Shown one piece after another: positions 1,458 through 60,308 of a stretch of 64,000 bases of DNA; position 1 is the stretch's first letter; every line of letters begins with the position of its first letter. Under the pieces are notes generated by a model. The model searched no databases, was not told the origin of the DNA, and was given only the letters and a program-made list of their open reading frames with translations. The stretch comes from Patescibacteria group bacterium (GTDB taxonomy: Bacteria > Patescibacteriota > Patescibacteriia > UBA1558 > GWA2-36-10), in assembly GCA_041662585.1 (NCBI GenBank), contig JBAZSG010000005.1, forward strand, positions 4,181-68,180. Direction: 5' to 3'. A program made the position numbers and the translations under genes.

Positions 1458-1484
1458 TAATAAAAATATTAATATATAAAATAT

Positions 1485-1868
1485 ATGGAGGACAAAAAAA
1501 TACTAATTGTTGAGGATGATGATTTTTTGCTACAAATGTATTCTACCAAGTTGGAATTAGAAGGTTTTAAGGTCTTTGAGGCAATCAATGGTTTACAAGG
1601 TTTGAAAATTGCTCAAAAAGAAAAACCAGATCTTATATTATTGGATCTCAATTTACCGGAGCTCAGTGGTTTTGAAGTGCTCAGTCAATTGAAAAGAGAA
1701 GATGATACCAAAGGTATAAAAGTTTTGATTCTTACCAATTATTCTCAAAAGGAGGATATAGATCGTTGTCTGGATTTGGGAGCTGATGATTATTTAATCA
1801 AGGCACATTTTGTACCATCGGAGGTTATTGCCAAAATAAAAGTAATATTAGAAGGAAAACAAGCATAA
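1485..1868 (+). CDS. Stand-alone CheY-like response regulator receiver domain
   Basis: 127 aa. Acidic pocket at IVEDDD, phospho-acceptor Asp in LILLDLNLPE, and a conserved Lys near DDYLIKA. The gene sits between pilB and pilT. Confidence 0.8.
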   Translation: MEDKKILIVEDDDFLLQMYSTKLELEGFKVFEAINGLQGLKIAQKEKPDLILLDLNLPELSGFEVLSQLKREDDTKGIKVLILTNYSQKEDIDRCLDLGADDYLIKAHFVPSEVIAKIKVILEGKQA

Positions 1869-1872
1869 AGCT

Positions 1873-2925
1873 ATGTCAGATACATTAATTATAAATGATA
1901 TATTAAACGCTGCTGCTGAGCGCAAGGCTACCGATATACATCTGGTAGCTGGTAGCAACCCAGTTATTCGGGTTGATGGACGACTAGTGACTTTGGTTGA
2001 TCAAGCTATTTTGACTGGCGATATATTGGCAGCTTTGGCTGAGTCGTTTTTGAATAAAGAAAATTTTGATAAATTGAGCAAAGAAAAAGAAGTGGTAGCT
2101 ATATATAATTGGGCTGATCGCAATCGTTATCGAGCCAAAATATTTTATCAAAAAGGTTTTTTGGCTATTTCTCTTCGTCTGATAGCACCATTTATTAGAG
2201 CTCCAAAAGATTTGGGAATACCCTCATCTATATTGCAACTTCTCAACCGAGAAAAAGGTTTGATTATTATCACTGGTCCTTTTGGTAGTGGGCGTACATC
2301 TACAGCAGCCTCTTTGATAGAAGCACTCAATCAAAACAAAGGCTTGCATATCCAAACTTTAGAAAAACCACTTGAATATTTATTTTCCAACAATCAATCA
2401 GTGATTGAACAGAGAAATGTAGGCACGGATGTAAATACCTTTGTTACTGGTCTTAAAAATATGTTGGACGAAGATATAGATGTAGTGTTTGTAGATTCTG
2501 CTCACGAAGAAGGTGTGGAAGATATTATTTTGGAGCTAGCTGAAAGTGGTAAACTGGTAATATTTATTATGGATGCTGACTCAGTAGAATCAGCGCTAGA
2601 CAGATTTATTTCAAATCTTTCATTGGACAAAAAAAACTGGGGAATAGAAGTATTGGCCGATGTATTACTGGGAGCCATGGCTCAGCGTCTGATGTCTAGA
2701 GTCGGAGGAGGTCTGACGATGGCTTCAGAAGTATTGATCAATAATCCAGCTGTGCGTAGCTCCATAAAAAGTAACAAGCTATCACAGCTCAATAGTATTA
2801 TGCAGACTTCCAAAGATGAAGGTATGTCATCTTTGGACAAAGCTTTATTAGAGCTAGTCAGGATAGGCGACATAAGTATGACTGATGCTAGAAATCAAGC
2901 CGTTGATTCAAATATTTTTAAATAA
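1873..2925 (+). CDS. PilT-like twitching-motility ATPase homologue with degenerate catalytic motifs
   Basis: PilT family fold and length. Walker A reads GPFGSGRTST (Lys replaced by Arg). The Walker B/Asp box reads DVVFVDSAHEEG, with the catalytic Glu of GEMRD absent. The His box reads SGKLV (His replaced by Lys). Confidence 0.7.
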   Translation: MSDTLIINDILNAAAERKATDIHLVAGSNPVIRVDGRLVTLVDQAILTGDILAALAESFLNKENFDKLSKEKEVVAIYNWADRNRYRAKIFYQKGFLAISLRLIAPFIRAPKDLGIPSSILQLLNREKGLIIITGPFGSGRTSTAASLIEALNQNKGLHIQTLEKPLEYLFSNNQSVIEQRNVGTDVNTFVTGLKNMLDEDIDVVFVDSAHEEGVEDIILELAESGKLVIFIMDADSVESALDRFISNLSLDKKNWGIEVLADVLLGAMAQRLMSRVGGGLTMASEVLINNPAVRSSIKSNKLSQLNSIMQTSKDEGMSSLDKALLELVRIGDISMTDARNQAVDSNIFK

Positions 2926-2934
2926 TACCCCTTT

Positions 2935-4143
2935 ATGGCAATATATAAATATAAAGCAAGAACCAGTGAAGGCCGGGCTACAGATGGTGCTGTAGAGGCC
3001 ATCACTGAAGATGATGCAGCAGAATTATTGGCTGAAAAAGGCTTGATTCTTTTGTCACTTACAGAAATTGCCAAAAAAGAAAGTAAAGGTTGGAATATAA
3101 ATATTGGTAAAATCAAGCACAAAGATATAGTAATATTTTCACGTCAGCTATCAGTGATGATATCGGCTACTGTACCGATAGTACAGTCACTGAGGATATT
3201 GGCTCAGCAAACAGTCAATCCAATGTTTATCGACAAGATAATAGAAATGGCCAATGATGTAGATGGTGGTATGAGATTTTCTAGTGCTTTGGCCAAGCAC
3301 AATAAGGTTTTTAGTAATTTTTATGTAGCTATGACCAAGAGTGGTGAGACCTCTGGTAAATTGGATGAAATATTACAATATTTGGCTGATCAGATGGAAA
3401 AGGATTATGACTTGGTCTCTCGTATTAAGGGCGCTATGATTTATCCGGTTTTTATCATTTCTTCTATGTTGGTGGTTGGTTTTTTGATGATGACTTTTGT
3501 GGTGCCACAAATGGTCAAGATGTTGGAAGAAACTGGCGCAGAGTTGCCATTGGTTACTAGGGTTTTGGTGAGTGTTTCTAGTTTTATGAATTCTTATTGG
3601 TATATTATTATTATACTTTTTGGATTATTGGTTTTTATGCTCAAGCTTTGGTTAAAATCTACAGTTGGTAAGCTGGCTTGGGACAATCTTAAAATACAAA
3701 TTCCAATTTTTGGTAATCTTTTCAAAAAAGTTTATATCGTACGCTTTACTCGTTCTCTTACTACCCTTATCAAGGGTGGTGTGCCTATTTCTTCAGCTTT
3801 GAATATCACAGCCGAAGTAGTGGACAACAGTGTGTATGAGAAATTGATATTGGATACCGTCGCTGAGGTAGAGGGTGGAAATTCTATTTCTACTTTATTT
3901 GTCAATTCCAAAGCTATGCCCAAAATGCTTTCACAGATGATGGTCATTGGTGAAAAAACCGGTAAGCTGGATACAGTGTTAGAAAAATTGAGTGATTTTT
4001 ATAGTCGCGAAATTGATAATTTAGTAGAAGGATTGACGGCACTTATTGAGCCTTTGATTCTTATCGTTATGGGTGTGGGAGTAGGTGGTATGGTGGCCGC
4101 TATTATGTTGCCGATGTTTAAAGTTGCTCAAAGTATTAGTTAA
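2935..4143 (+). CDS. pilC: Type IV pilus inner-membrane platform protein PilC (GspF family)
   Basis: 402 aa with duplicated GspF-like domains and three TM segments. Typical position after the pilB/pilT genes. Confidence 0.85.
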   Translation: MAIYKYKARTSEGRATDGAVEAITEDDAAELLAEKGLILLSLTEIAKKESKGWNINIGKIKHKDIVIFSRQLSVMISATVPIVQSLRILAQQTVNPMFIDKIIEMANDVDGGMRFSSALAKHNKVFSNFYVAMTKSGETSGKLDEILQYLADQMEKDYDLVSRIKGAMIYPVFIISSMLVVGFLMMTFVVPQMVKMLEETGAELPLVTRVLVSVSSFMNSYWYIIIILFGLLVFMLKLWLKSTVGKLAWDNLKIQIPIFGNLFKKVYIVRFTRSLTTLIKGGVPISSALNITAEVVDNSVYEKLILDTVAEVEGGNSISTLFVNSKAMPKMLSQMMVIGEKTGKLDTVLEKLSDFYSREIDNLVEGLTALIEPLILIVMGVGVGGMVAAIMLPMFKVAQSIS

Positions 4144-4167
4144 AAGATTGTTGAAAATCAAAAAAAA

Positions 4168-4176
4168 TGATATAAT
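4168..4176 (+). promoter_or_regulatory. Extended -10 promoter element TGaTATAAT upstream of the major pilin gene
   Basis: Sequence tgatataat. A ~130-nt leader with RBS GGAGG lies just before the ATG at 4310. Confidence 0.4.
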
Positions 4177-4309
4177 GAAGATGTTCTTTTTTTAAAATAA
4201 AAATATTAAATATCCTAGCAGATTTCTATTTGAAGATTAAAACCTCAGGGATCTCAGGCTTTAATTAGCCAATAGAATTTGCTAAAGTGGAAGGAGGTGA
4301 AAATAGAAA

Positions 4310-4729
4310 ATGAAAAATAATAAAGGTTTTACTTTAGTTGAGCTATTGGTAGTTATTGCCATCATTGGTATTTTATCTACTGTAGCTGTAGTAAACTTAA
4401 ATTCAGCTCGTGATAAGGCTAGAACAGCCGCTGCGCAAGCTTGGGGTTCTGGTTTAGCCCCATTAGTAGTGCTTTGTGGTGATGAGGTTTCAGGTGTATT
4501 GACTGATCCTATGGTACTTGGTGTTTATACACCAGGTGAGTTTTGTAATCCAGCTATAAGTGCTACTTGGCCAGGTGCATTACCTTCAGGCTATACAACT
4601 ATAGGTCTTGATTCCAATAGTCCTACTACTGGAGCTTGGGAAATAGATATAAGTGGTGCATCAGTAAATTGTGTTGAATGTGATCAAAATAGTTGTGTTG
4701 ATGCTGGAGCAGTTGCTTGTGCTGATTAA
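4310..4729 (+). CDS. pilA: Type IV major pilin (prepilin with class III signal peptide)
   Basis: The N-terminus MKNNKG|FTLVELLVVIAIIGIL has the G/F cleavage site and Glu+5. SARDKART follows, and the C-terminus is Cys-rich. 139 aa. Confidence 0.8.
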   Translation: MKNNKGFTLVELLVVIAIIGILSTVAVVNLNSARDKARTAAAQAWGSGLAPLVVLCGDEVSGVLTDPMVLGVYTPGEFCNPAISATWPGALPSGYTTIGLDSNSPTTGAWEIDISGASVNCVECDQNSCVDAGAVACAD

Positions 4730-4759
4730 ATAGAAATTTATTTAAATTCAATTTTAAAA

Positions 4760-4787
4760 AACCTTCTTAATAGAGGGTTTTTTAATT
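4760..4787 (+). terminator. Rho-independent terminator after the pilin gene
   Basis: aaaaaCCTTCTtaatAGAGGGtttttt. The stem is 6 bp with one G.U pair and is followed by a T-tract. Confidence 0.45.
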
Positions 4788-4805
4788 TTGTGCTATAATA
4801 TTTAT

Positions 4806-5240
4806 ATGAAATTATTTGATTATTCTATCAAAATAAAAGTTGCTTTGATTGCTATATTTATTATATTAGTTGTAGTTTTGATTTTTTTGATAAATTACAA
4901 TTATAGTCGTGGTCGTGATTTAAAGAGAGTTTCTCAAGTCAGAGAAATAGCTACAGCTATGGAGCGTTATTTTGACAAAACTCGTACTTATCCAGAAACA
5001 GCTAAAATCAATTTATCAACTATCAATTTTATAAGCGAAAATGGTATCAACCAAACTGGTGAATATTTGTATTTTAAAGCAAGCAACAGAGAAATAGACG
5101 GCACCTTGGTATCTTCTCTTGATCGTTATGTGATAGAATTTCCTTTGGATAATTCTTGGGATTTATGGGGAGTGACTAGTAGTGATGGAGGCACTTGTCG
5201 TCTTTCCAATTATTTGGAGATGCTTTGTAAATCTAAATAA
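4806..5240 (+). CDS. Pilin-like protein with an N-terminal membrane anchor but no prepilin-peptidase motif
   Basis: A TM helix is followed by SRGRDLKRVSQVREIATAMERYF, which resembles the pilin alpha1-C region. There is no Gly-Phe...Glu+5 cleavage site. An extended -10 box (tgtgctataat, 4788-4798) lies immediately upstream, so the true start is probably the ATG at 4806. Confidence 0.5.
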   Translation: MKLFDYSIKIKVALIAIFIILVVVLIFLINYNYSRGRDLKRVSQVREIATAMERYFDKTRTYPETAKINLSTINFISENGINQTGEYLYFKASNREIDGTLVSSLDRYVIEFPLDNSWDLWGVTSSDGGTCRLSNYLEMLCKSK

Positions 5241-5336
5241 AATTTGACAATTTGAATATTAGAGAGTAATTTTTAGTTAGAAGAAGAAAAGCGAAAGCGA
5301 GAGTTTTAAGATTATGGTTAGTTTTTTTGTGTTTAG

Positions 5337-5666
5337 AAAATTAAATTTTATTTTTATGAAAGAGAGATTTGGTATGCTAGTTTAGGAGAAAATATTGGTT
5401 TTGAACAAAACGGTAAAAATACATGTTTTGAAAGACCAGTGCTTGTTTTAAAAAAATTTAATAAAAATTTACTTTGGGTTTTGCCACTTACTAGTCAGTC
5501 GAAAACAGGAAATTATTATCACCAATTTGAATTTAATGGAAAATTTAGTTTTATTATTTTAGTGCAGTTGAGGGTTATTAGTAGCAAAAGATTGATAAGA
5601 AAAATAGGGACATTGTCTGTAGATAATTTTAATGAGGTAAGAAAAAAAGTAAAAACTTTGTTATAA
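5337..5666 (+). pseudogene. MazF/PemK-family toxin homologue lacking a canonical start codon (possible frameshift or decay)
   Basis: The in-frame translation EREIWYASLGENIGFEQNGKNTCFERPVLVLKKFNKNLLWVLPLTSQSK...RLIRKIGTLSVDNFNEVRKKV matches MazF/PemK (IW...G.EQ.G.RP.LV...PITS...R.G.L). No ATG/GTG/TTG lies between the upstream TAG and the conserved block. The only nearby ATG (5356) is in the +1 frame. No adjacent antitoxin ORF is visible. Confidence 0.55.
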
Positions 5667-5671
5667 AAAAC

Positions 5672-5698
5672 GACCTCCATCAAATGATGGAGGTCTCG
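5672..5698. other. Perfect 11-bp hairpin GACCTCCATCA-aat-TGATGGAGGTC
   Basis: A direct inverted repeat sits right after the mazF-like stop. The T-tract is on the minus-strand side only. Confidence 0.4.
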
Positions 5699-5835
5699 GA
5701 GGCCGAAGCCCATTTGATTACAATATAACACAATGTTATTCACAAGTCAAATTAAATTATTTTTTTAATTATTTAATATAATTTTTAACCTTAATATAGC
5801 CAAATTACCACAAAATATGCTATAATAAAGCTACT

Positions 5836-6615
5836 ATGATTGTAGCTTTTGTGTTTATTTTGGGGCTTTTTATTGGTAGCTTCTTAAATGTAGTTATTTT
5901 GCGTTTGCATCGGCAAGAATCTTTTATCAAAGGAGCTTCCAAATGTCTTTTTTGCAAACATAGACTATATCCCAAGGATTTAGTTCCTTTGTTTAGTTTT
6001 TTGTTTTTACAAGGGCGTTGTCGTTATTGTAAAAAAAGATTTTCTCAGCAATATCCTTTGGTGGAGTTAGCTACTGGCTTGGCTTTTGTTTTGGTTTTTT
6101 TGAAGGTGATTCCTAGTTTGGATTTGACCTCAATCTCAGCTTTACAATTTTTGCATTTATTGGATTGGTGGATGATTGTCGGGTTTTTGATTATTATTTT
6201 TGTTTATGATCTCAAATATTATTTAATATTGGACAAAGTGGTTTGGCCAGCAATTGTTTTGGCTTTTTTTGCCAATTTATTTTTGGGATTTTCTATACTC
6301 AATTTAGTCTTGGCAGCGGTGATTGGTGGGGGATTTTTCTTATTGCAATTTGTCATGTCCAAAGGACGGTGGATAGGCGGAGGAGATATACGCTTGGGAG
6401 TATTTATGGGTGTTATTTTGGGTTGGCCACATATTTTGACAGCCTTGTTTATTTCTTATATTTTAGGCAGTTTTATTAGTATATTTTTGCTTTTGGGCAA
6501 GCGTAAAGAATGGGGTGATAAGGTGCCTTTTGGTACTTTTTTGGCTTTGGGTACTTTTGTGACTATGCTATGGGGGTCAGCTCTAATGAAAGGCTATTTA
6601 GCTTTGTTTTATTAA
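5836..6615 (+). CDS. pilD: Prepilin peptidase PilD (A24 family)
   Basis: N-terminal CxxC...CxxC zinc motif (CLFCKHRL...CRYCKK). Polytopic membrane protein with the GGGDIRLG active-site region. A TGcTATAAT box lies at 5818-5826. Confidence 0.85.
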   Translation: MIVAFVFILGLFIGSFLNVVILRLHRQESFIKGASKCLFCKHRLYPKDLVPLFSFLFLQGRCRYCKKRFSQQYPLVELATGLAFVLVFLKVIPSLDLTSISALQFLHLLDWWMIVGFLIIIFVYDLKYYLILDKVVWPAIVLAFFANLFLGFSILNLVLAAVIGGGFFLLQFVMSKGRWIGGGDIRLGVFMGVILGWPHILTALFISYILGSFISIFLLLGKRKEWGDKVPFGTFLALGTFVTMLWGSALMKGYLALFY

Positions 6616-6648
6616 CTATATAATTAATATAATTATTAATATAAAAAT

Positions 6649-7926
6649 ATGTTTAAAAAAATATTTTTTGTTAAACAACTTGACTCAAGTATAAAGAGTA
6701 AAGTTGGATTTACAATAATAGAGCTACTGTTGGTAGTGGCAGTTACGGCCATTATCACAGTGGTATCAGTAGCCTATATCAAAGGTGATGATACTGACGA
6801 TGTAGATTTGGCAGCTGGTCAATTGTTGTCAGATGTTCGTGAGCTTAGAAGCCTAGCTGCCTCTCATCAAGCTTTTGATTTTGATGGTCCTATTGGCATA
6901 CAGCCAGCTGTTTATCCAGCCGGTGGCTATGGTATAACCTTTAGTGGTGGAAACAGTTATAGACTTTTTGCTGATTCAGGAGCAACAGCTGGTTATGATG
7001 CTGCAGATGGTACTATCAGAGTAGTCACTTTAGACAACACTTCATTACATGTAGAAGGTTTACAGAGTAGTGGTACTAGTGGCGGAGAGACTAAATATTT
7101 TACTTTTAAATCAGAAAATGACGCAAGTACAAATTTGGTAGCCAATGCAGCTGGTAGATATGAAATGGCTATTATTTATTCAGATATAACGCCTGCTTAT
7201 GTAGGTAAACTTTCTTTGGGAGAAAATTCAACTGATGGGAGCATAATTGTAAGTTTGGGAGTTGGTTTTGCTTCTGTTGAAATTGCTTGTGCTGAGCTTG
7301 GTGCTTCTTGTGGTGGATCAATAGAATGTTGCGGCGTTTTAGATACTTGTAATCCGGTAACGCACAAATGTACAGCTCCTACTCCTCCTCCTGGTGGCGG
7401 TACAATACTTAGTTGTTTTCCAGCTGGAACAAAAATTTTGATGGCTGATAATTCATCAAAAAACATTGAAGATGTTCAAATAGGTGATTTTGTTTTGAGC
7501 TATGATGAAAAATTGGGAGTGGAAGTTGTAGCTGAAGTCTTGGAATTGGCTGCTCCAGTCAGAGAACATATGTGTGAGATTACTTTTGCTGATGATGATT
7601 CTCTTAAACTGACAAATGAACACCCTGTCTACACTACAGATGGTTGGAAATCTATCAATCCAGAAGAAACTTACAAAGAAAATGATGATTTTGTGGTTGA
7701 AAGATTGCTACTCGGCGATGAAGTCTTTTTTGTCAACGAGCTATACAAAGTAGTCAAAGGCATAAACTGTTGGCAAGAAGAAGGAATACAAACATACAAT
7801 CTAAAGAGTGTTAAAGACTCTAGTACATTTTTTGCTGATGATATTTTGGTTCATAATGTAGCAAATCCTGATTGTGGTACACCGGCTACCAGAGATCCAG
7901 CTGCAGCCGCTGGAGCGCTTAATTAA
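6649..7926 (+). CDS. Prepilin-type (pseudopilin-like) protein with a C-terminal Hint/BIL (Hedgehog-intein-like) autoprocessing domain
   Basis: Class III signal SKVG|FTIIELLLVVAV. A Cys-rich knot and a PTPPPGGG linker precede the Hint domain. Hint blocks are block A CFPAGTKILMADNS, block B LTNEHPVYTTDGW (TxxH), block F TYNLKSVKDSSTFFADD, and block G ILVHN. The +1 residue is Val, so it is not a canonical intein. Confidence 0.75.
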   Translation: MFKKIFFVKQLDSSIKSKVGFTIIELLLVVAVTAIITVVSVAYIKGDDTDDVDLAAGQLLSDVRELRSLAASHQAFDFDGPIGIQPAVYPAGGYGITFSGGNSYRLFADSGATAGYDAADGTIRVVTLDNTSLHVEGLQSSGTSGGETKYFTFKSENDASTNLVANAAGRYEMAIIYSDITPAYVGKLSLGENSTDGSIIVSLGVGFASVEIACAELGASCGGSIECCGVLDTCNPVTHKCTAPTPPPGGGTILSCFPAGTKILMADNSSKNIEDVQIGDFVLSYDEKLGVEVVAEVLELAAPVREHMCEITFADDDSLKLTNEHPVYTTDGWKSINPEETYKENDDFVVERLLLGDEVFFVNELYKVVKGINCWQEEGIQTYNLKSVKDSSTFFADDILVHNVANPDCGTPATRDPAAAAGALN

Positions 7927-7943
7927 AAATAATAAATAGCTTA

Positions 7944-8630
7944 TTGATTGTGTTAGACAATAATAACCAACAAAAAAATTTCCAGCATCATTTGAGAAGA
8001 AAAAATGATGCTGGATTTACTTTGATAGAATTGCTTATAGCTATTGCAGTTTTTACGATTGGGCTTTTAGGGTCTATTGGTTTGGCTACTTCAAATTATA
8101 GTAATTCTCAAGACAATTTAGATAAGACATTGGCTGTCAATTTGGCTCAAGAGGGTCTAGAGCTTATCCGAAATGTTCGTGATAGCAATTGGCTGAAAAT
8201 AGAAGCCAATCAAGAAGTAATTGTTGGAGGAGTCTTTGATCCATATACTTGGGATAGTGCTTTGTCAGGCAATAATTATGTATATATAGATTATGATGAT
8301 GTTGCGCCATCGGCTTTCCCTCTCGCTTGTGGTGGAACTCTTAAATCATGTGTAGAAAATTGTCCAAATTGTCAGTTGTATACATATCTAGCTAATGGTT
8401 ATTATAGTCATGATAATACAGACAGCGTGCCAACCAAATATTCTAGAGGTTTTAGACTACATAAAATATGTTTGAGTGCAGATGGGCTTACTGAGTCTTT
8501 GGTAGATGCTAGTGGTGTTTGTCCTGGTACGCATATCGGTTTTCAAGTGACTTCTCATGTTCAATGGCCAGACAATGGTCAAACAAAATTTATAGAAGTA
8601 AGCGATTATATATATAATTGGAGAAGGTAA
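7944..8630 (+). CDS. Minor pilin / pseudopilin (prepilin-type N-terminus)
   Basis: NDAG|FTLIELLIAIAVF class III signal with Glu+5. 228 aa. Confidence 0.7.
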   Translation: MIVLDNNNQQKNFQHHLRRKNDAGFTLIELLIAIAVFTIGLLGSIGLATSNYSNSQDNLDKTLAVNLAQEGLELIRNVRDSNWLKIEANQEVIVGGVFDPYTWDSALSGNNYVYIDYDDVAPSAFPLACGGTLKSCVENCPNCQLYTYLANGYYSHDNTDSVPTKYSRGFRLHKICLSADGLTESLVDASGVCPGTHIGFQVTSHVQWPDNGQTKFIEVSDYIYNWRR

Positions 8631-9280
8631 TGAATAAACAAATTATCAAAAATGAAAATGGCTTTACCTTGATAGAAATGTTGGTTTCTATGGCAGTTTT
8701 TAGTTTGATGGTTTTTGCTGTAGGGGCTATATATATTGCTTTCAATAGTAGTCAGGTTCGCACTACTGCTTCTCAACAAGTCCTCAACGACAGTCAATAT
8801 GCTATGGATTTTATGGCCAAAGAAATCAGAAACAATGCCATAGTCAAATATTCTCTAAATTGCGATGATTTTATAAATACCGTAGGCGCTAATGCCGATG
8901 TTTTTAGTAAATGTATTATTTTAAAAAGACCAAATGGTCAGGTTTTTGCTTTTACCAGTCATAATAATGGTGCTGATGCTAAAGTAAATCTTTTGTATGT
9001 TTTATTGACCTGTACGGACAACACTTGTAATACCTATGAGGATATATACTTTAATTCTGGTTCAGTAGCTACATTATTGGGACCAGATTTAAATAATATC
9101 CAGCTAGATAATCTAGATTTCCTTATAAATCCCACTACTGATCCTTTTGTAATCAACGGTCCAAACGCTCAACCAAAAGTCACTATTAATATGAAAGTGG
9201 TTTATAATAGTACCAACCAAACAAAAAGAGTAAATTATGTTTTTCAAACAACAGTTTCTTCTAGAATATATAAACGATAA
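8618..9280 (+). CDS. Minor pilin / pseudopilin (PilW-like)
   Basis: NENG|FTLIEMLVSMAVF class III signal. 220 aa. Overlaps the previous gene by 13 nt, which suggests translational coupling. Confidence 0.7.
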   Translation: MEKVMNKQIIKNENGFTLIEMLVSMAVFSLMVFAVGAIYIAFNSSQVRTTASQQVLNDSQYAMDFMAKEIRNNAIVKYSLNCDDFINTVGANADVFSKCIILKRPNGQVFAFTSHNNGADAKVNLLYVLLTCTDNTCNTYEDIYFNSGSVATLLGPDLNNIQLDNLDFLINPTTDPFVINGPNAQPKVTINMKVVYNSTNQTKRVNYVFQTTVSSRIYKR

Positions 9281-9292
9281 TATATAATAATC

Positions 9293-12177
<2,885 letters not shown>

Positions 12178-16656: not shown

Positions 16657-19527
16657 ATGAAAAAAATAAATATTTTGGTTTTTAATATATTATTGCTATT
16701 TCTAGCCGTAATACTAATTAAAACGGTTCAAGCCGAACCAATTGGCTATGTTCATTCAGCCTTGATGTTTAATAGTGTTGCCAATAAAACAGTTGATGAA
16801 GGCAAACCACTTATTTTTACTATATCAGCTACAGCTGGGGCTAGCGAAGATATATATTTATCTTATTCGGCTACCAATCTACCAACTGGAGCTAATTTTT
16901 CTGACTCCACATTTTCTTGGATTCCAGGATATGATCAGGCTGGTACTTATAATGTCAATTTCTCAGTCAACGATGGAGTTGAAACCAAACAAAAAGTGCT
17001 TACTATAACGGTAAACAATGTAGATAGATCCAATCCTTGTGCTGGCAAAACAAATTGTATTGAAGTTGATAGTTGTAGAATCTTAGATCAAACTGGAGCC
17101 TACTATGTTTTAACACAGGATGTTAGTGCGGATAATAGCTGTTTTTATATAGACGCTGATAATATCGTTTTGGATCTCAATGGCTATACCATCACTTATG
17201 CCAATAACGGCAGTAATGTTGATTGTTATTATGAACCAGATGGTTGGGTATATGGAGCCAACGCTTGTCATTATGGTGTGTTTGTCAGTGATTATCCAAG
17301 TGAAAATCCTGATAGTCTTTCCAGTGATTGGAACAAGCACAGTGATAATACCGAGATTAAAAACGGTACAATCAGACAAGGTAATAGTAATACTCGATGG
17401 GGAGACGCTATTCATATCTATGGTAATCATAATAGCTATCATGACCTTAATATAGAAGTCAAAGGACCTGATAGTCGAGCTATATGGTCAAGAATGGCTC
17501 AAAACAATAATCAAGATGTGGATGTAGATGTATACAATAATATTGTTTATATGAACCTCATAGATATTACCAATAGATATACTGTACCAAGTGTTTTTTG
17601 GATTGGTAATGGTTCTAGGATTTATAACAATCATATTACCGGTAGAGGACAAGCTGGCATTAAAGTGGGAGATAATAGTCAGGTTCATGATAATTATATA
17701 AGTATGTGGGGTATTGCTCCCAATGCTTATGCTATTATTATGGGGTCATATTCAGAAATATATAATAATTATGTCAATCAATTAAATGGCCGAGCTACTG
17801 GTATGGGTTCTGATAATAATACAGAAGGGGGTCATCATATACAATTTTATAACAATCACTTTGAAGGACGAGAAGGTTGTGATGCCAATGCCACTGATAT
17901 AACTCACGTATTTAGAGTAAGATATGGTTCTCATGACAATGAGATACATGACAATGACATCATAGCTTATGGAGCTAAAGATTGTTATAAAAACGCAATT
18001 GCTTTGAGGGTTTCAGAAGATCCTGTATATTATGGAGGGAAAAATCATATTTATAATAATACTATTGCCGCTTTTACTAATTCAGACAATGACTCATATG
18101 TTGTGGCTTTTATGTTGGAAGGTGATGATGACAATAGAGAATATCCAAACGACTCAATTCATGATAATCGGATAATCAGTAATTCACAAAACATGGTATA
18201 TGGCGGTTCCAATGGTGGTCTTAGTGGCACTGTTTTGACATCAAATACATTTGTTAAGGCTGACAATACTGCTGATTATACCAATAGTGGTGCTTATTAT
18301 ACTTTGAATGTGGGTTTTTATGGTTATCCATCATATGATCAGGTTTTGTTAGATTCAAAATTTGAAAATGGAGCGTCTTATAGTCAAGTTATTTTTAATG
18401 GTTCGGATCCAGAGATGGTAGTCAAATGGTATTTAGATATTAAAGCATTGGGTGCCAATGCTTTGGCACTTCCAGGAGCAAATATTACTATTAAAGATGT
18501 ATTTGGTAATACTGTGAGTCAAGGTGGAGTGACAGATTCAAGTGGGCATTTTAAAAAAGATTTAACAGAATTTGTACAGGTATCTGGTACCAATAAAACC
18601 TATTATTCCCCATATACTGTTATTGTGAGTTATGCTGGAGAAACCAAAACAAGACAAGTTACTTTGAATGCGAGCAAAGAAGAATCTTTTTCTTTTGGAT
18701 CAGGAGTAATAGACAATCCACCAGCTGATAATAATCCACCAGCCGATGACTCATCAAATACTCCTTCATCTGGATCATCTACTACACCGACACCTGATAC
18801 AAATACTCCTTCATCTGGATCATCTACTACACCGACACCTGATACAAATACTCCTTCATCTGGAAATTCTACTACACCGACACCTGATACAAATACTCCT
18901 TCATCTGGAAATTCTACTACACCTATTTCCGAGACAAACAATAATAGTAACATAGGCAATGTTGCCATTGATACTCAGCTTACTAATAGATTAAAAGGTA
19001 GAATTCTTTTGCAAGTAGAATCGCTAGGAGAGGCTTGGTATGTCAAACCAAGTGATGGTCAGAGAGTTTATATGAAAGACGGTGATGCTGCTTACCAGAT
19101 AATGAGATTTTTAAGTTTGGGTATTACCAATGCCAACTTAAACAAAATACCAATTGGTATAGAAGATAGATTTGAAGAGTTTGATGCTGATGGTGATGGC
19201 TTATCAGATAAAATAGAAGAAGCGATTGGTTCAAATTTATTTAATAAAGATTCAGATGGTGACGGTTTTGATGACAAGTCTGAAGTGTTGAATAATTTTT
19301 CTCCAATTTCAAGCTCACGAGTAGCTTTATTAAGAGATAATTCTTTAATCAATAGATTAAAAGGTCAAATTCTTTTGCAAGTAGAATCCAGAGGAGAGGC
19401 TTGGTATGTAAATCCAGTTGACGGTAAAAGATATTATATGAAAGACGGTGACGCTGCTTACCAGATAATGAGATTTTTAAGTTTGGGTATTACCAATGCT
19501 GATTTGGCCAAAATTGCTCAAGATTAA
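16657..19527 (+). CDS. Large secreted right-handed beta-helix (pectate-lyase-fold-like) protein
   Basis: Signal peptide, then N/G/I-rich parallel beta-helix repeats (NNxIxxN). A Thr/Pro-rich linker follows. Two copies of a ~55-aa C-terminal module (LKG(R/Q)ILLQVES(L/R)GEAWYV.P.DG.R.YMKDGDAAYQIMRFLSLGITNA.L.KI) flank a D.DGDG...D.DGDG calcium-binding-like motif. 956 aa. Confidence 0.65.
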   Translation: MKKINILVFNILLLFLAVILIKTVQAEPIGYVHSALMFNSVANKTVDEGKPLIFTISATAGASEDIYLSYSATNLPTGANFSDSTFSWIPGYDQAGTYNVNFSVNDGVETKQKVLTITVNNVDRSNPCAGKTNCIEVDSCRILDQTGAYYVLTQDVSADNSCFYIDADNIVLDLNGYTITYANNGSNVDCYYEPDGWVYGANACHYGVFVSDYPSENPDSLSSDWNKHSDNTEIKNGTIRQGNSNTRWGDAIHIYGNHNSYHDLNIEVKGPDSRAIWSRMAQNNNQDVDVDVYNNIVYMNLIDITNRYTVPSVFWIGNGSRIYNNHITGRGQAGIKVGDNSQVHDNYISMWGIAPNAYAIIMGSYSEIYNNYVNQLNGRATGMGSDNNTEGGHHIQFYNNHFEGREGCDANATDITHVFRVRYGSHDNEIHDNDIIAYGAKDCYKNAIALRVSEDPVYYGGKNHIYNNTIAAFTNSDNDSYVVAFMLEGDDDNREYPNDSIHDNRIISNSQNMVYGGSNGGLSGTVLTSNTFVKADNTADYTNSGAYYTLNVGFYGYPSYDQVLLDSKFENGASYSQVIFNGSDPEMVVKWYLDIKALGANALALPGANITIKDVFGNTVSQGGVTDSSGHFKKDLTEFVQVSGTNKTYYSPYTVIVSYAGETKTRQVTLNASKEESFSFGSGVIDNPPADNNPPADDSSNTPSSGSSTTPTPDTNTPSSGSSTTPTPDTNTPSSGNSTTPTPDTNTPSSGNSTTPISETNNNSNIGNVAIDTQLTNRLKGRILLQVESLGEAWYVKPSDGQRVYMKDGDAAYQIMRFLSLGITNANLNKIPIGIEDRFEEFDADGDGLSDKIEEAIGSNLFNKDSDGDGFDDKSEVLNNFSPISSSRVALLRDNSLINRLKGQILLQVESRGEAWYVNPVDGKRYYMKDGDAAYQIMRFLSLGITNADLAKIAQD
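18757..18925 (+). repeat. Tandem 45-nt coding repeat (~4 copies) encoding NTPSSG(S/N)STTPTPDT
   Basis: Near-identical 45-mers beginning aatactccttcatctgga. This is a coding repeat, not a CRISPR array. Confidence 0.85.
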
Positions 19528-27977: not shown

Positions 27978-28601
27978 ATGGATAAAGGAAAATTTATAGT
28001 AATAGAAGGAGGAGATAAATCTGGTAAAAGTACCCAGATTGCTTTGTTAAAAGATTATTTAGAATCAAAAAATATTGATTTTGTTTTAACTAGAGAACCA
28101 GGTGGCAAAGGATCAGTGATAGCTGAAAAGATTAGAGCCATAATTTTGGACAAAAATCACAAAGAAATGGATTCACGAACAGAGCTATTATTATTTTTAG
28201 CTTCTCGGGCTCAACATGTAGCAGAAATAGTAAAACCGGCCTTGGAAGAAGGTAAGGTAGTAGTATGTGATCGTTTTGATTCTTCTACTTTTGCTTATCA
28301 AGGAGCAGCTCGCAAGCTTGATGTAGAAACAATAAAAGCCATAAATAATTGGGCTAAGTATGGATTAGAAGCGGATTTGGTTATTTATTTGGATATTTCT
28401 CCAGAAGAAGCCGAAAATAGACGTCGTGGTGATAAACATGATAGACTAGATAGAGAGACACAAGAATTTCATCAGGCTGTTAGACAAGGATATTTAGCTC
28501 AAGCCAAAAACAATAATAAGTGGTTTGTAATATCAGCTGTGGGAGAAATAAATGATATTGCTAGTAAGATTTCTGATAAAATAATGATTTTGCTTAAATA
28601 G
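27978..28601 (+). CDS. tmk: Thymidylate kinase
   Basis: FIVIEGGDKSGKSTQ P-loop and DRF motif (DRFDSS). The start was placed at the ATG at 27978. Confidence 0.85.
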   Translation: MDKGKFIVIEGGDKSGKSTQIALLKDYLESKNIDFVLTREPGGKGSVIAEKIRAIILDKNHKEMDSRTELLLFLASRAQHVAEIVKPALEEGKVVVCDRFDSSTFAYQGAARKLDVETIKAINNWAKYGLEADLVIYLDISPEEAENRRRGDKHDRLDRETQEFHQAVRQGYLAQAKNNNKWFVISAVGEINDIASKISDKIMILLK

Positions 28602-28631
28602 ATATAATAGTTGATTATTATTGCGACAAAT

Positions 28632-28678
28632 CCTACACTAGATGCGACTTTGCGTAGCAACGGAGCAATCTGTGTAGG
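28632..28678. other. Conserved ~30-nt motif (AGATGCGACTTTGCGTAGCAACGGAGCA) inside a 7-bp stem, copy 1, in the gatB leader
   Basis: Stem CCTACAC...GTGTAGG flanks the 27-nt core. A second copy with a different but still complementary stem lies at 31065-31113. Confidence 0.4.
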
Positions 28679-28703
28679 AGAGGAGCAATATGAATATAGA
28701 TTT

Positions 28704-30212
28704 ATGAGTAAATACGAAACAATTATTGGATTAGAAATTCACTTGCAGCTCAAGACGAAGAGCAAGATGTTTTGCGCTTGTTCAAATGATGCCGAAGGCA
28801 AAGAGCCGAATACTTTGGTTTGTTCGATTTGTTTGGGTCATCCAGGTACACTGCCAACTGTCAATAAAGAAGCTATCAAGATGGCTATGATGATGTCTTT
28901 GGCTATAAATTGCAAGATAAACAAACAATCAAAATTTGATCGCAAAAATTATTTTTATCCAGATTTGCCCAAAGGATATCAGATATCTCAATTTGACGAA
29001 CCATTGGCTCATAATGGACATTTGATTATTGAAGTAGAAGGTCAGACTTGGAGTATTGGTATTGAAAGACTTCACCTTGAAGAAGATGCTGCCAAAAATA
29101 TTCATAAAGGCAATAAGACTTTGGTGGATTATAATAGAGGAGGCACACCGCTAGCCGAGATTGTTACCAAACCAGATTTTAAAAGTCCCAAAGAAACCAA
29201 AGAATTTTTACAACAACTAAGGCTCATTGCTCGTTATTTGGGAGTATCTGATGCTGACATGGAAAAAGGACACCTGAGGTGTGATGCCAATATATCTCTA
29301 AGACCAATAGGTGACCATGACCTCTATGCCAAAACTGAAGTCAAAAATCTCAATTCATTTAAGGCAGTTGAGAAAGCTTTGATGTTTGAGGAAAAAAGAC
29401 AAGCTAAACTTTGGGATGAAGGTAAGGCTCCTCAAAAGACAGAAACTCGTGGTTGGGATGAAGACAAAGGTGAAACAGTTGCTCAGCGTAGCAAAGAAGG
29501 ATCTTCTGATTATCGGTATTTTCCAGAGCCTGATTTACCACCTCTGATTATTTCTGACAATTTGATGCAAGAGGTATTGTCTTTGATGCCAGAGCTACCA
29601 TATGATAAAAAGGCTAGATTTGTAAAAGAATATGAACTCAAAGGAGATGATGCTTGGATTTTGGTCAATCAAAAAGTGTGGGCCAATTATTTTGAGGAAG
29701 TAATGTCTGATTTGAGAGCTTGGCTTTTTAAAGCCAATGGTTTGTCTGAAGATAGTGAAGCAGCTGCTAATTTGTGGGGTAAAGAAAAAATCAAGCTATC
29801 AAAACTTACTTTCAATTGGATAAGCTCGGAATTATTTGGACTTTTACCTAGCAATTTTGATATTAAAGATTTAAAGATTAGTGCTGAAAATATGGCAGAA
29901 TTTATTAGTTTAATTTATAGAAAAATCATCAATAGTTCTGCAGGACAAATTATACTTAAAGAAATGTTTGCTGGTGCTGATGATGATCCAAGTCATATTG
30001 CTGATCGTTTGAATTTAATACAAATTGATGATGACATAGCAATTGAAACAACCGTATTAGCTGTTATGGAGGCAAATCCAGATCAAGTTGCTAAATATAG
30101 AGCTGGCAAGGATACTTTATTTAAATTTTTTGTAGGAAAAGTTATGGCTATGAGTAAGGGTAGAGCCAATCCACAAAAAGCTGAAGAGATACTGAAGAAA
30201 AAATTAAAATAA
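28704..30212 (+). CDS. gatB: Asp/Glu-tRNA(Asn/Gln) amidotransferase subunit B
   Basis: YETIIGLEIHLQLKT start and GatB/YqeY C-terminal region. Start placed at the ATG at 28704. An in-frame TTG-initiated extension from 28611 contains the conserved motif. Confidence 0.9.
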   Translation: MSKYETIIGLEIHLQLKTKSKMFCACSNDAEGKEPNTLVCSICLGHPGTLPTVNKEAIKMAMMMSLAINCKINKQSKFDRKNYFYPDLPKGYQISQFDEPLAHNGHLIIEVEGQTWSIGIERLHLEEDAAKNIHKGNKTLVDYNRGGTPLAEIVTKPDFKSPKETKEFLQQLRLIARYLGVSDADMEKGHLRCDANISLRPIGDHDLYAKTEVKNLNSFKAVEKALMFEEKRQAKLWDEGKAPQKTETRGWDEDKGETVAQRSKEGSSDYRYFPEPDLPPLIISDNLMQEVLSLMPELPYDKKARFVKEYELKGDDAWILVNQKVWANYFEEVMSDLRAWLFKANGLSEDSEAAANLWGKEKIKLSKLTFNWISSELFGLLPSNFDIKDLKISAENMAEFISLIYRKIINSSAGQIILKEMFAGADDDPSHIADRLNLIQIDDDIAIETTVLAVMEANPDQVAKYRAGKDTLFKFFVGKVMAMSKGRANPQKAEEILKKKLK

Positions 30213-30941
30213 AAAATCTTTAATCAATTTTTTAATTTCAGTTTTACTTTTATTCCAGTATATTTTGATGCCTTGTTTTTCCATCCGTCTGAACCAAGTC
30301 ATTTGTCGTTTGGCATAATGTCTAGTATCTTGTTTTATTTTTTCTATAGCTTTTTCTAGGCTAGTTTTATTGTCCAGATACTCTATTATTTGTCTGTAGC
30401 CAATGCCACTCAAAGATACTAGTTTTTTATTGGGATATTTTTTGTATATCTTTTTTACTTCAGCTATAGAGCCATCACGAAGCATTTTATCAACACGCTT
30501 ATTGATTTTATTATATAATTTTTCTCTATCTGGATTAATGCCTAGTACTATAAATTCATAAGGACATTCTCTTAAAGATGGTCTTTGGGGATGCATATCA
30601 TAATTTTGGATAACAGAACAAATGTATAAGCCAGTGCCACCACAAATAATAGGTATTTTATTATTTTTTAGTATTTTTTTTATTTTAGCAAAAGCAGCTT
30701 GTTGCCAATTGTATAGGGAATAGTCTTGATCAGGATTCACTACATCCAATAGATGGTGTTTTATACCAGCCATTTCGCTTTTAGTAATTTTGTTGCTAGC
30801 AATATCCATACCTTTGTATATTTGACGAGAGTCAGCAGAAATTATTTCACCATTAAAATTTTTAGCAACATAAACTGCCAAAGCTGATTTTCCAGAAGCC
30901 GTTGGACCTAAAATTATTATTATTTTTTGTTTATTTTTCAT
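30204..30941 (-). CDS. miaA: tRNA dimethylallyltransferase (short form)
   Basis: IIIILGPTASGKSALAV P-loop and ADSRQIYKGMDI. 245 aa. Confidence 0.8.
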   Translation of the reverse strand: MKNKQKIIIILGPTASGKSALAVYVAKNFNGEIISADSRQIYKGMDIASNKITKSEMAGIKHHLLDVVNPDQDYSLYNWQQAAFAKIKKILKNNKIPIICGGTGLYICSVIQNYDMHPQRPSLRECPYEFIVLGINPDREKLYNKINKRVDKMLRDGSIAEVKKIYKKYPNKKLVSLSGIGYRQIIEYLDNKTSLEKAIEKIKQDTRHYAKRQMTWFRRMEKQGIKIYWNKSKTEIKKLIKDFLF

Positions 30942-31064
30942 TATCTATTTATTGTTCTTTCTTTGTGTCTACAACGCCTAGCTGCTAGCGCAGAAGCCGT
31001 TGGTCCTAAAACTACTATTATTTTTTGTTTGTCTTTTTTTGGCGTATTTATTTCATTACGAGTA

Positions 31065-31113
31065 ACCTGTGCCAGATGCGACTTTGCGTAGCAACGGAGC
31101 AGTCGGCGCAGGT
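31065..31113. other. Conserved ~30-nt motif, copy 2, in the miaB-miaA spacer
   Basis: Stem ACCTGTGCC...GGCGCAGGT (9 bp with one G.U) flanks the identical core GATGCGACTTTGCGTAGCAACGGAGCA. Confidence 0.4.
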
Positions 31114-31127
31114 ACGAGTAATAATTT

Positions 31128-32429
31128 TTATATTACCTTTGCTTTTACACCCCAGTCTAGAGCTTGAGTTATTTCTACTTTATAAAATTGACCAACTTTT
31201 AATTTTTGTTTAGTTTCTATGTGTACTGGTAAATAATTTGATAATTTGCCGATATTTATGTAGATATTTTTTTCTTTTTTAACTACATCAATCAATGCTT
31301 CGCGTTCTTGTCCAATGAGCTTTTTATTAAAAGCAAAAGATTGGACAGTTAATTGATCATTCATAGCTTGCCAGCGAGCTTTCTTGATTGTTTTTGATAC
31401 ATCATCTTTTATCATTTTGGCAGCAATAGTACCAACTCTAGATGAATATTGAGATATATACATTAGATTATAGTCCATTTCTTTGACTAGCTTTTTTGTA
31501 TCCGCAAAATCTTTGTCTGTCTCACCACAAAAGCCCACAATAATATCACTAGATAGAGTAATATTAGGCATTAATTTGCGTATTTTTTTTATTAATTTTT
31601 TGTACTGGGCTATTGTATAATGTCTATTCATTTTTTTGAGTATTTCATCAGAACCACATTGGACTGGCAAGTGCAAATAATCATTTAGATTTTTACATTT
31701 GGCCATAGTAGAAATAAGCTCATCACTCATATCATAGGGGTGGCTAGTCAAAAACTTTAACCAAAAATGATCTGATAAATCATCTACTTTTTTGAGTAGC
31801 TCTGGAAAAGAAATTTCTTCGCCATTTACCTTGTCCAAGCCATAGCTATTTACATTTTGACCAAGTAACACTATTTCTTTGTAGCCTTTATCTAAAAGTT
31901 CTTTAATTTCTTTTATTATATTTTCTGAAGGACGGGAAGTTTCACGGCCTCTGGTATAGGGCACTGCACAATAAGAGCAAAATTTGTTGCAACCAGTCAT
32001 GATAGGCACATAGGCACGATAAGTTGATCCGTAGCTAGGCGATATATCAAAAAAATCTGGTAAAGCCAATTTTTCTTCAGGATGGATACTAGCTATATCC
32101 TGAGCTAAATTTTCTAGTTTTTTTATATCAATAAATAAATCAAATTTGTGAGCTAGCTTTTTTTTATCAGAATCTAAAACACAACCAGAAAGTATGGTAA
32201 TCAGTGGTCTGGTTTCTTTGGTGAGTTGCCAGTGGTGTACTTTGCTGTAGATTCTATCTACTGCTGCCTGCTTGACGGAGCAAGCTACTATGACTATCAG
32301 ATCAGCTTCTGCTTCATTTTTTGTTTCGCTATAGCCTATTTTTTTTAGCACAGTAGCTAGTCTCTCACCGTCAGATGAATTCATTTGACAACCAAATATA
32401 ATAAGATGAAATTTTTTATTTTTTATCAT
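31128..32429 (-). CDS. miaB: tRNA-2-methylthio-N6-dimethylallyladenosine synthase (radical SAM methylthiotransferase)
   Basis: UPF0004 N-domain (HLIIFGCQMN), radical SAM CSYCAVPYTRG and a TRAM C-domain. Start probably the ATG at 32429. Confidence 0.85.
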   Translation of the reverse strand: MIKNKKFHLIIFGCQMNSSDGERLATVLKKIGYSETKNEAEADLIVIVACSVKQAAVDRIYSKVHHWQLTKETRPLITILSGCVLDSDKKKLAHKFDLFIDIKKLENLAQDIASIHPEEKLALPDFFDISPSYGSTYRAYVPIMTGCNKFCSYCAVPYTRGRETSRPSENIIKEIKELLDKGYKEIVLLGQNVNSYGLDKVNGEEISFPELLKKVDDLSDHFWLKFLTSHPYDMSDELISTMAKCKNLNDYLHLPVQCGSDEILKKMNRHYTIAQYKKLIKKIRKLMPNITLSSDIIVGFCGETDKDFADTKKLVKEMDYNLMYISQYSSRVGTIAAKMIKDDVSKTIKKARWQAMNDQLTVQSFAFNKKLIGQEREALIDVVKKEKNIYINIGKLSNYLPVHIETKQKLKVGQFYKVEITQALDWGVKAKVI

Positions 32430-32500
32430 AGCTGATATTGTAGACTTTTTTTTAAAGCTAGTCAAAAACAGCCCAATTATTAGGGCTGTTAGGTATCGTA

Positions 32501-59566: not shown

Positions 59567-59734
59567 ATGATAAATAAAATTAGAAAATTTAATATATTAT
59601 TTTTACCAAGTATGCTGCTATTATTTGTTTGTTCAGCTATGCTAGCTATAATATGGGCAATAGGATATTCAGGCTATTGGATATTTTCTAGATTTAAATT
59701 AAATACAGAGAAGAAAAGCAATTTTGTGAGTTAA
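59567..59734 (+). CDS. Small hydrophobic ORF, family copy A (55 aa)
   Basis: MINKIRKFNILFLPSMLLLFVCSAMLAIIWAIGYSGYWIFSRFKL. ~85% identical to the N-terminus of the ORF at 60309. Confidence 0.35.
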   Translation: MINKIRKFNILFLPSMLLLFVCSAMLAIIWAIGYSGYWIFSRFKLNTEKKSNFVS

Positions 59735-59864
59735 TTAGAAAAAAACAGGCAAACTAATAATTAGTTTGTTAAAAAATGAAGAAGAAAAACGTTTTTGGGA
59801 GCTAAGTTAGTCTCCCCAGTTGGTTCAATCCACTGGGGAGACAGAAAATTATTCAAAATTAATT

Positions 59865-60299
59865 ATGATTTCAAGTAAAAAATTAGAAAATTTTAATAAA
59901 AAATTTGATGTAGTATCTTTGTTTGTAATTGTTGGTAATAAAATATTACTTTTGAAAAGGCACGATGACAAGCCACAGCCTGGATTGTGGGGACCTCCTG
60001 CTGGCAAAGTAGATGAAGGTGAATCTTTAAAACAAGGAATGATTAGAGAAACTTTTGAAGAGTCTGGTGTAAGTATAAAAAACGATGAATTAAAGCATTT
60101 TAAAAAAGAATATTTTGTTAGACATGGGGACGTAGATTTTATTTTTCATGTATTTGCAGTATATCGTGATGATTTTATGGAAGTAAATATAAATGGCACA
60201 GAGCATATTGAATATGGATGGTTTGATATGCAAGAGGCATTAAATATGGATTTGGTAGAAGATGAATATATTCCATTAAAAGATTATTTTAATTTATGA
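59865..60299 (+). CDS. NUDIX hydrolase
   Basis: Nudix box GPPAGKVDEGESLKQGMIRETFEESGV. Start placed at the ATG at 59865, because a 10-bp hairpin occupies 59804-59834. Confidence 0.7.
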   Translation: MISSKKLENFNKKFDVVSLFVIVGNKILLLKRHDDKPQPGLWGPPAGKVDEGESLKQGMIRETFEESGVSIKNDELKHFKKEYFVRHGDVDFIFHVFAVYRDDFMEVNINGTEHIEYGWFDMQEALNMDLVEDEYIPLKDYFNL

Positions 60300-60308
60300 G
60301 ATTTATAT

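Follow-up and report, generated by a model that had tools for sequence, protein, structure and literature searches.

A family of intergenic hairpins

The window analyzed here is a 64,000-nt stretch of contig JBAZSG010000005.1 from a Patescibacteria group bacterium (assembly GCA_041662585.1), and it contains two copies of a short hairpin element, one in the spacer between tmk and gatB (copy 1, w1) and one in the spacer between miaB and miaA (copy 2, w2). Together with five further members from related genomes they form a family of seven hairpins, in which complementary arms of differing sequence surround a conserved internal loop, and which occur in either orientation relative to the flanking genes. 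The family is tentatively interpreted as a low-copy group of intergenic hairpins resembling repetitive extragenic palindromes (REP) and miniature inverted-repeat transposable elements (MITE), which likely act as folded single-stranded DNA (ssDNA), the bubble and apex being recognized by a putative protein. An earlier sequence-only reading of the window had listed a small repeat element among its options, and with seven copies and empty sites in relatives this is the option now favored.

The 28-nt core AGATGCGACTTTGCGTAGCAACGGAGCA was present exactly at 28640-28667 and 31074-31101, on the + strand at both loci and nowhere else in the window. No match to the core was obtained in any of 100 dinucleotide-preserving shuffles, even with 3 mismatches allowed. 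The earlier observation of two identical cores is confirmed. The arms had been described as different yet complementary in both copies, and this was borne out: (T)CCTACAC pairs with GTGTAGG(A) in copy 1, and ACCTGTGCC with GGCGCAGGT in copy 2, the latter with one U.G pair. Both copies folded into long irregular hairpins, with RNA minimum free energies of -23.0 (copy 1) and -28.4 kcal/mol (copy 2) and z-scores against shuffles of -5.1 and -4.2, respectively. Copy 1 starts 30 nt past the tmk stop codon and ends 25 nt ahead of the gatB ATG at 28704, in a spacer of 102 nt; it does adjoin gatB, as the earlier term gatB leader implied, but its site is better called the tmk-gatB spacer.

For further copies, an exact 20-mer scan, which would miss diverged cores, was made against one genome per species and metagenomes of the JGI (Joint Genome Institute); neither set includes the window's own genome. 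A single further site was found, in Candidatus Komeilibacteria bacterium RIFOXYD1_FULL_37_29 (L001), its two matches being the same DNA. The same 32-nt core lies there inside a third, unrelated and perfectly complementary arm pair (ATGTTTTATGC/GCATAAAACAT), 28 nt downstream of ychF and antisense. The dut-tmk-gatB and miaA-miaB regions of relatives were also compared (loci picked around gatB, and also around prfA), and with L003m, L007a, L007b and L007c the family comprises seven distinct members in four assemblies. These probably represent three genomes, as L001 and L007 are judged to be one genome by their nearby accession numbers. As far as sampled, the hosts are one clade of Candidatus Komeilibacteria (Patescibacteria), related groundwater bacteria; the closest GatB homologues of the window genome are those of Komeilibacteria.

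A covariance model built from all seven copies recovered all seven and no other copy in 210 kb comprising the window and related loci. With filters off, neither this model nor one built from copies with a type I apex (defined below) gave a third copy in the window or an extra one in the 210 kb, and loci added around gatB and prfA in relatives yielded no member beyond L003 and L007. Density ranged from 3 copies in 13.5 kb of L007 and 2 in the 64-kb window to none in a further ~100 kb of related loci. Viral contigs, searched with an 18-mer, the type III core and a gapped pattern, returned either nothing or 120 chance matches, all of which failed the structural descriptor, and BLAST against phages and plasmids gave no meaningful match. 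Rfam at gathering thresholds gave no match in the whole window, L001, L003 or L007; at E<=10, the 200-nt stretches around both window copies gave chance-level scores only (12-15 bits, vs. gathering scores of 38-98). The Rfam check agrees with the earlier reading, in which the element was not recognized as any known riboswitch class. A literature search found no repeat elements or structured RNA motifs described for Patescibacteria or the candidate phyla radiation, and the family is apparently undescribed so far.

The further copies also settle whether the two window copies are a chance local duplication devoid of structural meaning. The window has just two copies, separated by 2.4 kb, as such a duplication would leave them, but a third exact core stands in another genome within a third complementary arm pair, four more members have covarying stems, and zero matches were expected by chance; the explanation is refuted, and its probability is negligible.

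Shared structure, covariation and strand

The elements are about 50-65 nt long and all lie in spacers, mostly 14-31 nt beyond a stop codon. From the outside inward, they share a variable outer stem of 7-20 bp, an internal loop in which the invariant GC-GA-(C/A)TT stands opposite (G/A)-GA-GC, and a variable, compact apical hairpin of G+C composition; a bulged purine usually follows GAGC. Within the internal loop, tandem G.A pairs and two closing G-C pairs can form, and a bulge region of 2-3 nt U/T ((C/A)UU) lies 3' of the first GA, making the loop asymmetric. What had been taken for an invariant loop is really a helix of irregular form, which contains the conserved tandem-GA internal loop and ends in the variable apical hairpin.

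Four types of apex were distinguished: type I, GCGTAGC, in w1, w2 and L001; type II, GCTTTAGC, in L007a; type III, GCGAAGC, in L007b and L007c; and type IV, GCGCTAGC, in L003m. All except type II, and hence six of the seven copies, conform to the mini-hairpin motif GCGNAGC or GCGNNAGC. Such mini-hairpins are extraordinarily stable as DNA, with a melting temperature (Tm) of 76.5 C as compared with 39 C for the RNA r(GCGAAAGC), and they are nuclease-resistant and poorly bound by single-stranded DNA-binding protein (SSB); known sites are the ssDNA priming sites of phages G4, ST-1 and alpha3 and of ssiA, and the hairpin promoters of N4 (PMC13037366).

In a hand-made structural alignment of the seven copies, 96.2% of cells were standard pairs, vs. 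31-49% when the 3' partners were slid, and 15 of 20 pairs had changed on both sides; 0 of 500 shuffles reached the observed values. These figures are somewhat inflated because the alignment was fitted to the structure, but the effect far exceeds that bias. The compensatory change noted earlier in the stems of two copies is real, and it extends to the five further ones. On the strand reading GCGA...GAGC, four G.U cells were found in the counted alignment and a fifth by reading the full arm of L007b, and there were 0 A.C cells. Folding with RNA parameters made this strand the more stable one in 7/7 copies, with z-scores from -3.5 to -7.7.

The covariation had been called the signature of a structured RNA or of a protein-recognized hairpin. 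It is strong, but it does not by itself show RNA, and an ssDNA hairpin fits as well or better. A structured RNA made from the GCGA...GAGC strand, whether a binding or processing hairpin for an RNA-binding protein or RNase or a small non-coding RNA gene, is less probable but a serious rival. Tandem sheared G.A pairs are a frequent protein-recognition feature in RNA, and here they lie in an invariant, purine-rich internal loop between two covarying helices, below an apical loop of the GNA/GNNA type. G.U pairs confined to one strand, the preference of RNA folding for that strand in every copy, the low fold z-scores, and a position and orientation common to copy 2 and L007a also agree with RNA, though strand asymmetry and covariation fit the RNA and ssDNA explanations equally well. 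Against it, both flanking genes run antisense to the folding strand in 4/7 copies, inside very tight operons, no consensus promoter or intrinsic terminator was found at either window copy, and the element is absent from the same sites in most close relatives. Rfam offers no match, the geometry is not that of a kink-turn (the bulge is 3' of the GA on the same strand), and the apex motifs are reported to be far stabler as DNA (PMC13037366).

Other kinds of element were tried and rejected. An intrinsic terminator is excluded at the two window copies, as neither is followed by a T run, whichever strand is read, and the terminator scan lists neither. Hammerhead and T-box were ruled out by geometry or a missing consensus. 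A protein-coding sequence was rejected because the open frame is not the same in the two window copies.

Sites and orientation of the copies

The tmk-gatB spacer, which holds copy 1 in the window, is 7 nt long in L003, L004 and L012, and the two genes overlap in L007 and L011. miaB and miaA overlap in L004, are separated by 24 nt in L003, and are fused into one open reading frame (ORF) of 676-678 aa in L010 and L011; the L007 spacer measures 171 nt and contains two family hairpins in opposite orientations (L007a and L007b). The dut-tmk spacer measures 1 nt in the window, 8 nt in L004, 74 nt in L003 and 103 nt in L007; the last two contain one copy each, in opposite orientations. By sequence comparison, the short or overlapping spacers in most close relatives are empty sites.

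Relative to the flanking genes, three copies are sense and four antisense, and the flanking genes over all copies are tmk/gatB, miaB/miaA, dut/tmk and ychF. A single gene cluster accounts for five of the seven copies, spread over three spacers, partly because loci were picked around gatB. Copy 2 and L007a have the same position, orientation and flanks. The mixed orientation argues against a cis-regulatory RNA leader, and this class was rejected on the varied neighbors and empty sites as well, since no fixed gene family or orientation is kept.

The sequence-only reading had drawn attention to the tRNA-related neighbors. The identities of gatB, miaA and miaB, and the antisense position of copy 2 with respect to miaA and miaB, were upheld by Pfam and synteny, as was the identity of tmk, but a tRNA-gene theme was not. 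A cis-regulatory element common to gatB, miaA and miaB would agree with two copies adjoining tRNA-related genes 2.4 kb apart, and with the two copies of L007 in the miaB-miaA spacer. The sites are empty in most close relatives, further copies lie at dut/tmk and after ychF, copy 2 is antisense to the genes it would regulate, and the dut-tmk copies of two genomes are oppositely oriented; this explanation is already largely refuted and very improbable.

In L010, a more distant relative, the tmk-gatB spacer is 77 nt long and contains an unrelated hairpin; hairpins seem to have landed in this spacer repeatedly. The L010 hairpin (9924-10000) reads GCCCCGT, a 22-nt A+T-rich loop with TGTTATAAT, then ACGGGGC.

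The ychF-side copy was identical in seven independent metagenome assemblies. Beside it, two more hairpins were observed at L001 7517-7597 (L136 ~5150-5235, - strand). The first is ATCCC-GCGTAGC-TTTA-GCGAAGC-GGGAT, with two adjacent mini-hairpin motifs, and the second AATTTTAC-GTAC-GAGTGTAGTGA-GTAC-TT-GTAAAATT, with TACGAGT inside; the ychF spacer looks like a mosaic of hairpin modules. Within the 535-nt spacer between ychF and the next gene (L136 ~5280-5480), an extended -10-like TGTGCTATAAT in the direction of ychF is followed ~170 nt on by a terminator-like hairpin, GAATTCCACCT...AGGTGGAATTC, with a T run. This pair may mark a small RNA gene; the overlapping L001 locus, which contains the spacer, had no Rfam match.

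Spread and possible action as folded DNA

Under the REP/MITE-like interpretation, the elements would have entered the minimal spacers of tight operons in either orientation, by insertion or by copying from one spacer to another, and would regulate neither gatB nor miaA. Their active form may be a single folded DNA strand, GCGA...GAGC, present for example on the lagging-strand template, and the G.A bubble and apex would be the target of a trans-acting protein; candidates are a replication protein and an ssDNA transposase or nuclease that binds hairpins. The family, its structure and covariation, the strand asymmetry, the empty sites and the mixed orientation are observed and count in favor of this interpretation, as do the DNA-type apex and the lack of an Rfam match; action as DNA, mobility and a protein partner are inferred. 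Two genomes (that of the window and L001) with only 80% GatB identity have type I cores that are 100% identical, and spread therefore fits better than neutral descent. GC skew was positive over almost the whole window, and the + strand is accordingly predicted to be the lagging-strand template.

Several observations weigh against this interpretation. Pfam on the 64-kb window revealed no transposase, integrase or HUH gene, and there is no known autonomous partner. Copies are few (2 in 64 kb, and 0 in 41 kb around prfA of two relatives), and no insertion polymorphism was seen at the ychF-side copy across the seven assemblies. The sharing between copy 2 and L007a points to long retention, and so perhaps to a host function. 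Generic DNA nearest-neighbor parameters, which do not model the special stability of mini-hairpins, rated both strands about equal, the sense strand being more stable in only 4/7 copies. Both window copies are sense on the predicted lagging-strand template, but two copies are a thin base. Identical cores of ~30-35 nt occur in unrelated arms twice, as type I in w1, w2 and L001 and as type III in L007b and L007c, which simple cut-or-copy-and-paste does not predict.

The flanks bear on the interpretation in two ways. The exact 9-nt direct repeat of copy 2, TACGAGTAA, and its relatives beside other copies (GAGTAA and TACGAGTAAT in L003, TTACGAA and GGAGTAAT at L007a) count in its favor. Because the repeat recurs at different loci, it is not an ordinary target-site duplication; it either belongs to the element or marks a favored target. 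As a genome-wide motif TACGAGTAA was not enriched, with 12 matches vs. 9.7 expected at <=1 mismatch.

A host DNA signal, i.e., an extruded or single-stranded hairpin serving as a priming or SSB-exclusion site, hairpin promoter or recombination site, and recruited repeatedly with no selfish spread, was considered distinctly unlikely. The mini-hairpin motif type is that of the G4/ST-1/alpha3 and ssiA priming sites and the N4 promoters (PMC13037366), the conserved bubble implies protein recognition, both window copies are sense on the predicted lagging-strand template, and the ychF-side copy is fixed over seven assemblies. The same spacers are empty in relatives with 83% GatB identity, the element is absent from ~100 kb of related sequence, and L007b and L003m are oriented oppositely to the other copies relative to gatB, all of which speak against a host signal.

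How a mobile hairpin of this kind would keep its core and change its arms can be outlined from the copies themselves. w2 and L003m have arms and flanks in common and differ in the apex, which makes the family mosaic. Short-patch conversion or template switching between hairpins is a possible origin, and so is a move of just the core into fresh palindromic arms. Paired changes of the arms could also result from quasipalindrome correction, with no selection; such correction would also erase the bubble, and we infer that the bubble at least is under selection.

It is unlikely, though somewhat less so than a host signal, that the family is a new kind of ssDNA hairpin element in bacteria of the candidate phyla radiation, in which only a ~30-nt core (apex and G.A bubble) propagates and new complementary arms arise at each site, or else a new class of protein-binding RNA restricted to these bacteria. 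Core-only propagation, if true, would imply an undescribed form of copying, such as hairpin-primed or template-switch insertion, and a hairpin-recognizing protein.

Patescibacteria genomes are tiny and tightly packed, and insertions into operon spacers of 1-24 nt would make them less static than gene order suggests. A mini-hairpin apex with a G.A bubble and free arms offers a small, clean substrate for finding the protein that recognizes it, and the family is a test case in which covariation by itself cannot tell RNA from folded DNA.

Neighboring genes and other features of the window

Coordinates of the two copies, their flanks and the adjoining genes are listed in Table 1. The public GatB annotation (533 aa, from TTG 28611) runs through copy 1, and relatives begin at the equivalent of ATG 28704; copy 1 has thus caused an annotation error, with 31 spurious N-terminal residues on the public model. 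At 28677-28707, a Shine-Dalgarno-like GGAGAGGAG precedes a 5-codon ORF (ATG AAT ATA GAT TTA TGA) whose stop overlaps the gatB ATG (ATGA). This ORF may re-couple translation after an insertion of ~95 nt between tmk and gatB; the alternative is the frame open from TTG 28611, as in the 533-aa annotation. Between copy 2 and the true miaA start lies a decayed tandem duplicate of the miaA start region (30980-31047, - strand, vs. 30882-30941; period 98 nt, 82% identity over 57 nt), which reads ...KKDKQKIIVVLGPTAS and then diverges at the expected position of the P-loop lysine.

Table 1. Coordinates of the hairpin copies, their parts and flanks, and the neighboring genes in the window
Feature	Position	Strand	Description
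tmk	27978..28601	+	Thymidylate kinase; upstream of copy 1; Pfam
Degenerate left flank of copy 1	28621..28631	+	TTGCGACAAAT, like TTACGAGTAA; read from sequence
Copy 1 (w1), type I core	28631..28679	+	tmk-gatB spacer; sense to tmk and gatB
Copy 1, outer parts			Stem TCCTACAC/GTGTAGGA; bulged T 28639; then AGAT/ATCT
Copy 1, inner parts			GC-GA 28644-28647; C; TT; apical mini-hairpin GCGTAGC 28652-28658; CG; GA-GC 28663-28666; bulged A
Degenerate right flank of copy 1	28680..28689	+	GAGGAGCAAT; 7/10 positions as TACGAGTAAT; overlaps Shine-Dalgarno-like GGAGAGGAG; read from sequence
gatB	28704..30212	+	ATG 28704 most likely the true start (MSKYET..., as in relatives)
miaA	30204..30941	-	IPP transferase, IPPT; Pfam
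Left direct repeat of copy 2	31057..31065	+	TACGAGTAA; exact, 9 nt
Copy 2 (w2), type I core	31065..31113	+	Ends 14 nt from the miaB stop codon; antisense to both mia genes
Copy 2, outer parts			Stem ACCTGTGCC/GGCGCAGGT (one U.G); unpaired A 31074; GAT/GTC
Copy 2, inner parts			GCGA 31078-31081; apex GCGTAGC 31086-31092; GAGC 31097-31100
Right direct repeat of copy 2	31113..31121	+	TACGAGTAA; exact, 9 nt
miaB	31128..32465	-	Radical SAM methylthiotransferase (radical SAM/UPF0004/TRAM); Pfam

Elsewhere in the window, a type IV pilus cluster occupies 69-10183 (PilB- and PilT-like ATPases, PilC, a prepilin peptidase, several pilins and a PilX-like protein), inside which a 425-aa Hint-domain protein is encoded at 6649-7926; a truncated PemK/MazF-like ORF was observed at 5439-5666. 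The 956-aa ORF at 16657-19527 contains, at 18710-19514, 45-nt tandem repeats with Pro/Thr/Ser-rich units and a 164-nt repeat pair, and it resembles a repetitive surface protein. At 59567-60606, a NUDIX gene and short ORFs are surrounded by direct repeats of 136 nt and 92 nt (82-91% identity), ~740-800 nt apart, which suggest a recent local duplication. An apparently ORF-free stretch at 61.3-62.8 kb is an artefact, as a long ORF there runs off the window end.

Comparison with known systems

The closest RNA parallel is the kink-turn and other tandem-GA motifs, in which, as here, a G.A/A.G tandem lies next to G-C pairs and a short bulge separates two helices. A kink-turn consists of a canonical (C) helix, a 3-nt bulge, the G.A/A.G tandem and a non-canonical (NC) helix; on its bulged strand, the bulge precedes the GA on the 5' side. 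In the present family the 5' strand runs helix, GC, GA, (C/A)UU, helix, which places the bulge 3' of the GA, and a kink-turn was rejected.

Among DNA elements, the palindrome-associated transposable elements (PATEs) derived from IS200/IS605 insertion sequences and the attC sites of integrons resemble the family in being folded strands with conserved unpaired or extrahelical bases, a free stem and strand specificity. PATEs differ in carrying two different subterminal hairpins, and no TnpA gene is nearby here. In attC, conserved outer R''/R' core sites (RYYYAAC ... GTTRRRY) surround a variable centre, and cassette arrays lie beside intI; the layout of the present family is the reverse. As no GTTRRRY occurs at any 3' foot, the conserved part is central and the outside variable, and the window has no integrase, with no integrase gene nearby, attC was also rejected.

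MITEs likewise are small, non-coding hairpin insertions in spacers, present or absent between relatives, and copy 2 with its 9-nt direct repeat recalls them. A MITE family keeps its terminal inverted repeats constant; in the present hairpins, copies whose cores are identical have different arms. The flanking repeat is also seen at other loci, and a parent insertion sequence (IS) is not known.

REPs and the bacterial interspersed mosaic elements (BIMEs) built from them, which are mobilized by REP-associated tyrosine transposases (RAYTs) of the Y1-HUH type, are also short imperfect palindromes in spacers just after genes, with a conserved mismatch or bulge in the stem. They stand in either orientation, sometimes as inverted pairs (compare L007a/L007b), form mosaic modules and are thought to act as folded ssDNA. 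The family does consist of imperfect palindromes of the REP type in extragenic position, its hairpins being 47-64 nt long as compared with ~20-40 nt for REP. REPs have a conserved GTAG-like tetranucleotide at the 5' foot and keep their stems within a family, and tens to hundreds of copies per genome accompany a cognate RAYT gene. Here copies are few and no RAYT gene was seen, though only 64 kb of the genome is visible. The 5' feet are CCTACAC, CCTGTGCC, ATGTTTTATGC, TAGGTTAA, TCACTATT and CGCAGATA, with GTAG solely inside the type I apex; there is no GTAG-type foot, the outer stems are not kept, and the conserved parts are the tandem-GA bubble and the apex. With arms not conserved and no GTAG foot, a classical MITE or REP was rejected.

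Mini-hairpin DNA, finally, is known from single sites in phage and plasmid origins and promoters, unlike the dispersed chromosomal repeats described here, and the GA bubble and long variable stem have no counterpart there. The apex of 6/7 copies nevertheless matches the mini-hairpin motif exactly, and the type III apex CGGCGAAGCCG is one base from CGGCGAAAGCCG, the test sequence that excludes SSB (PMC13037366).

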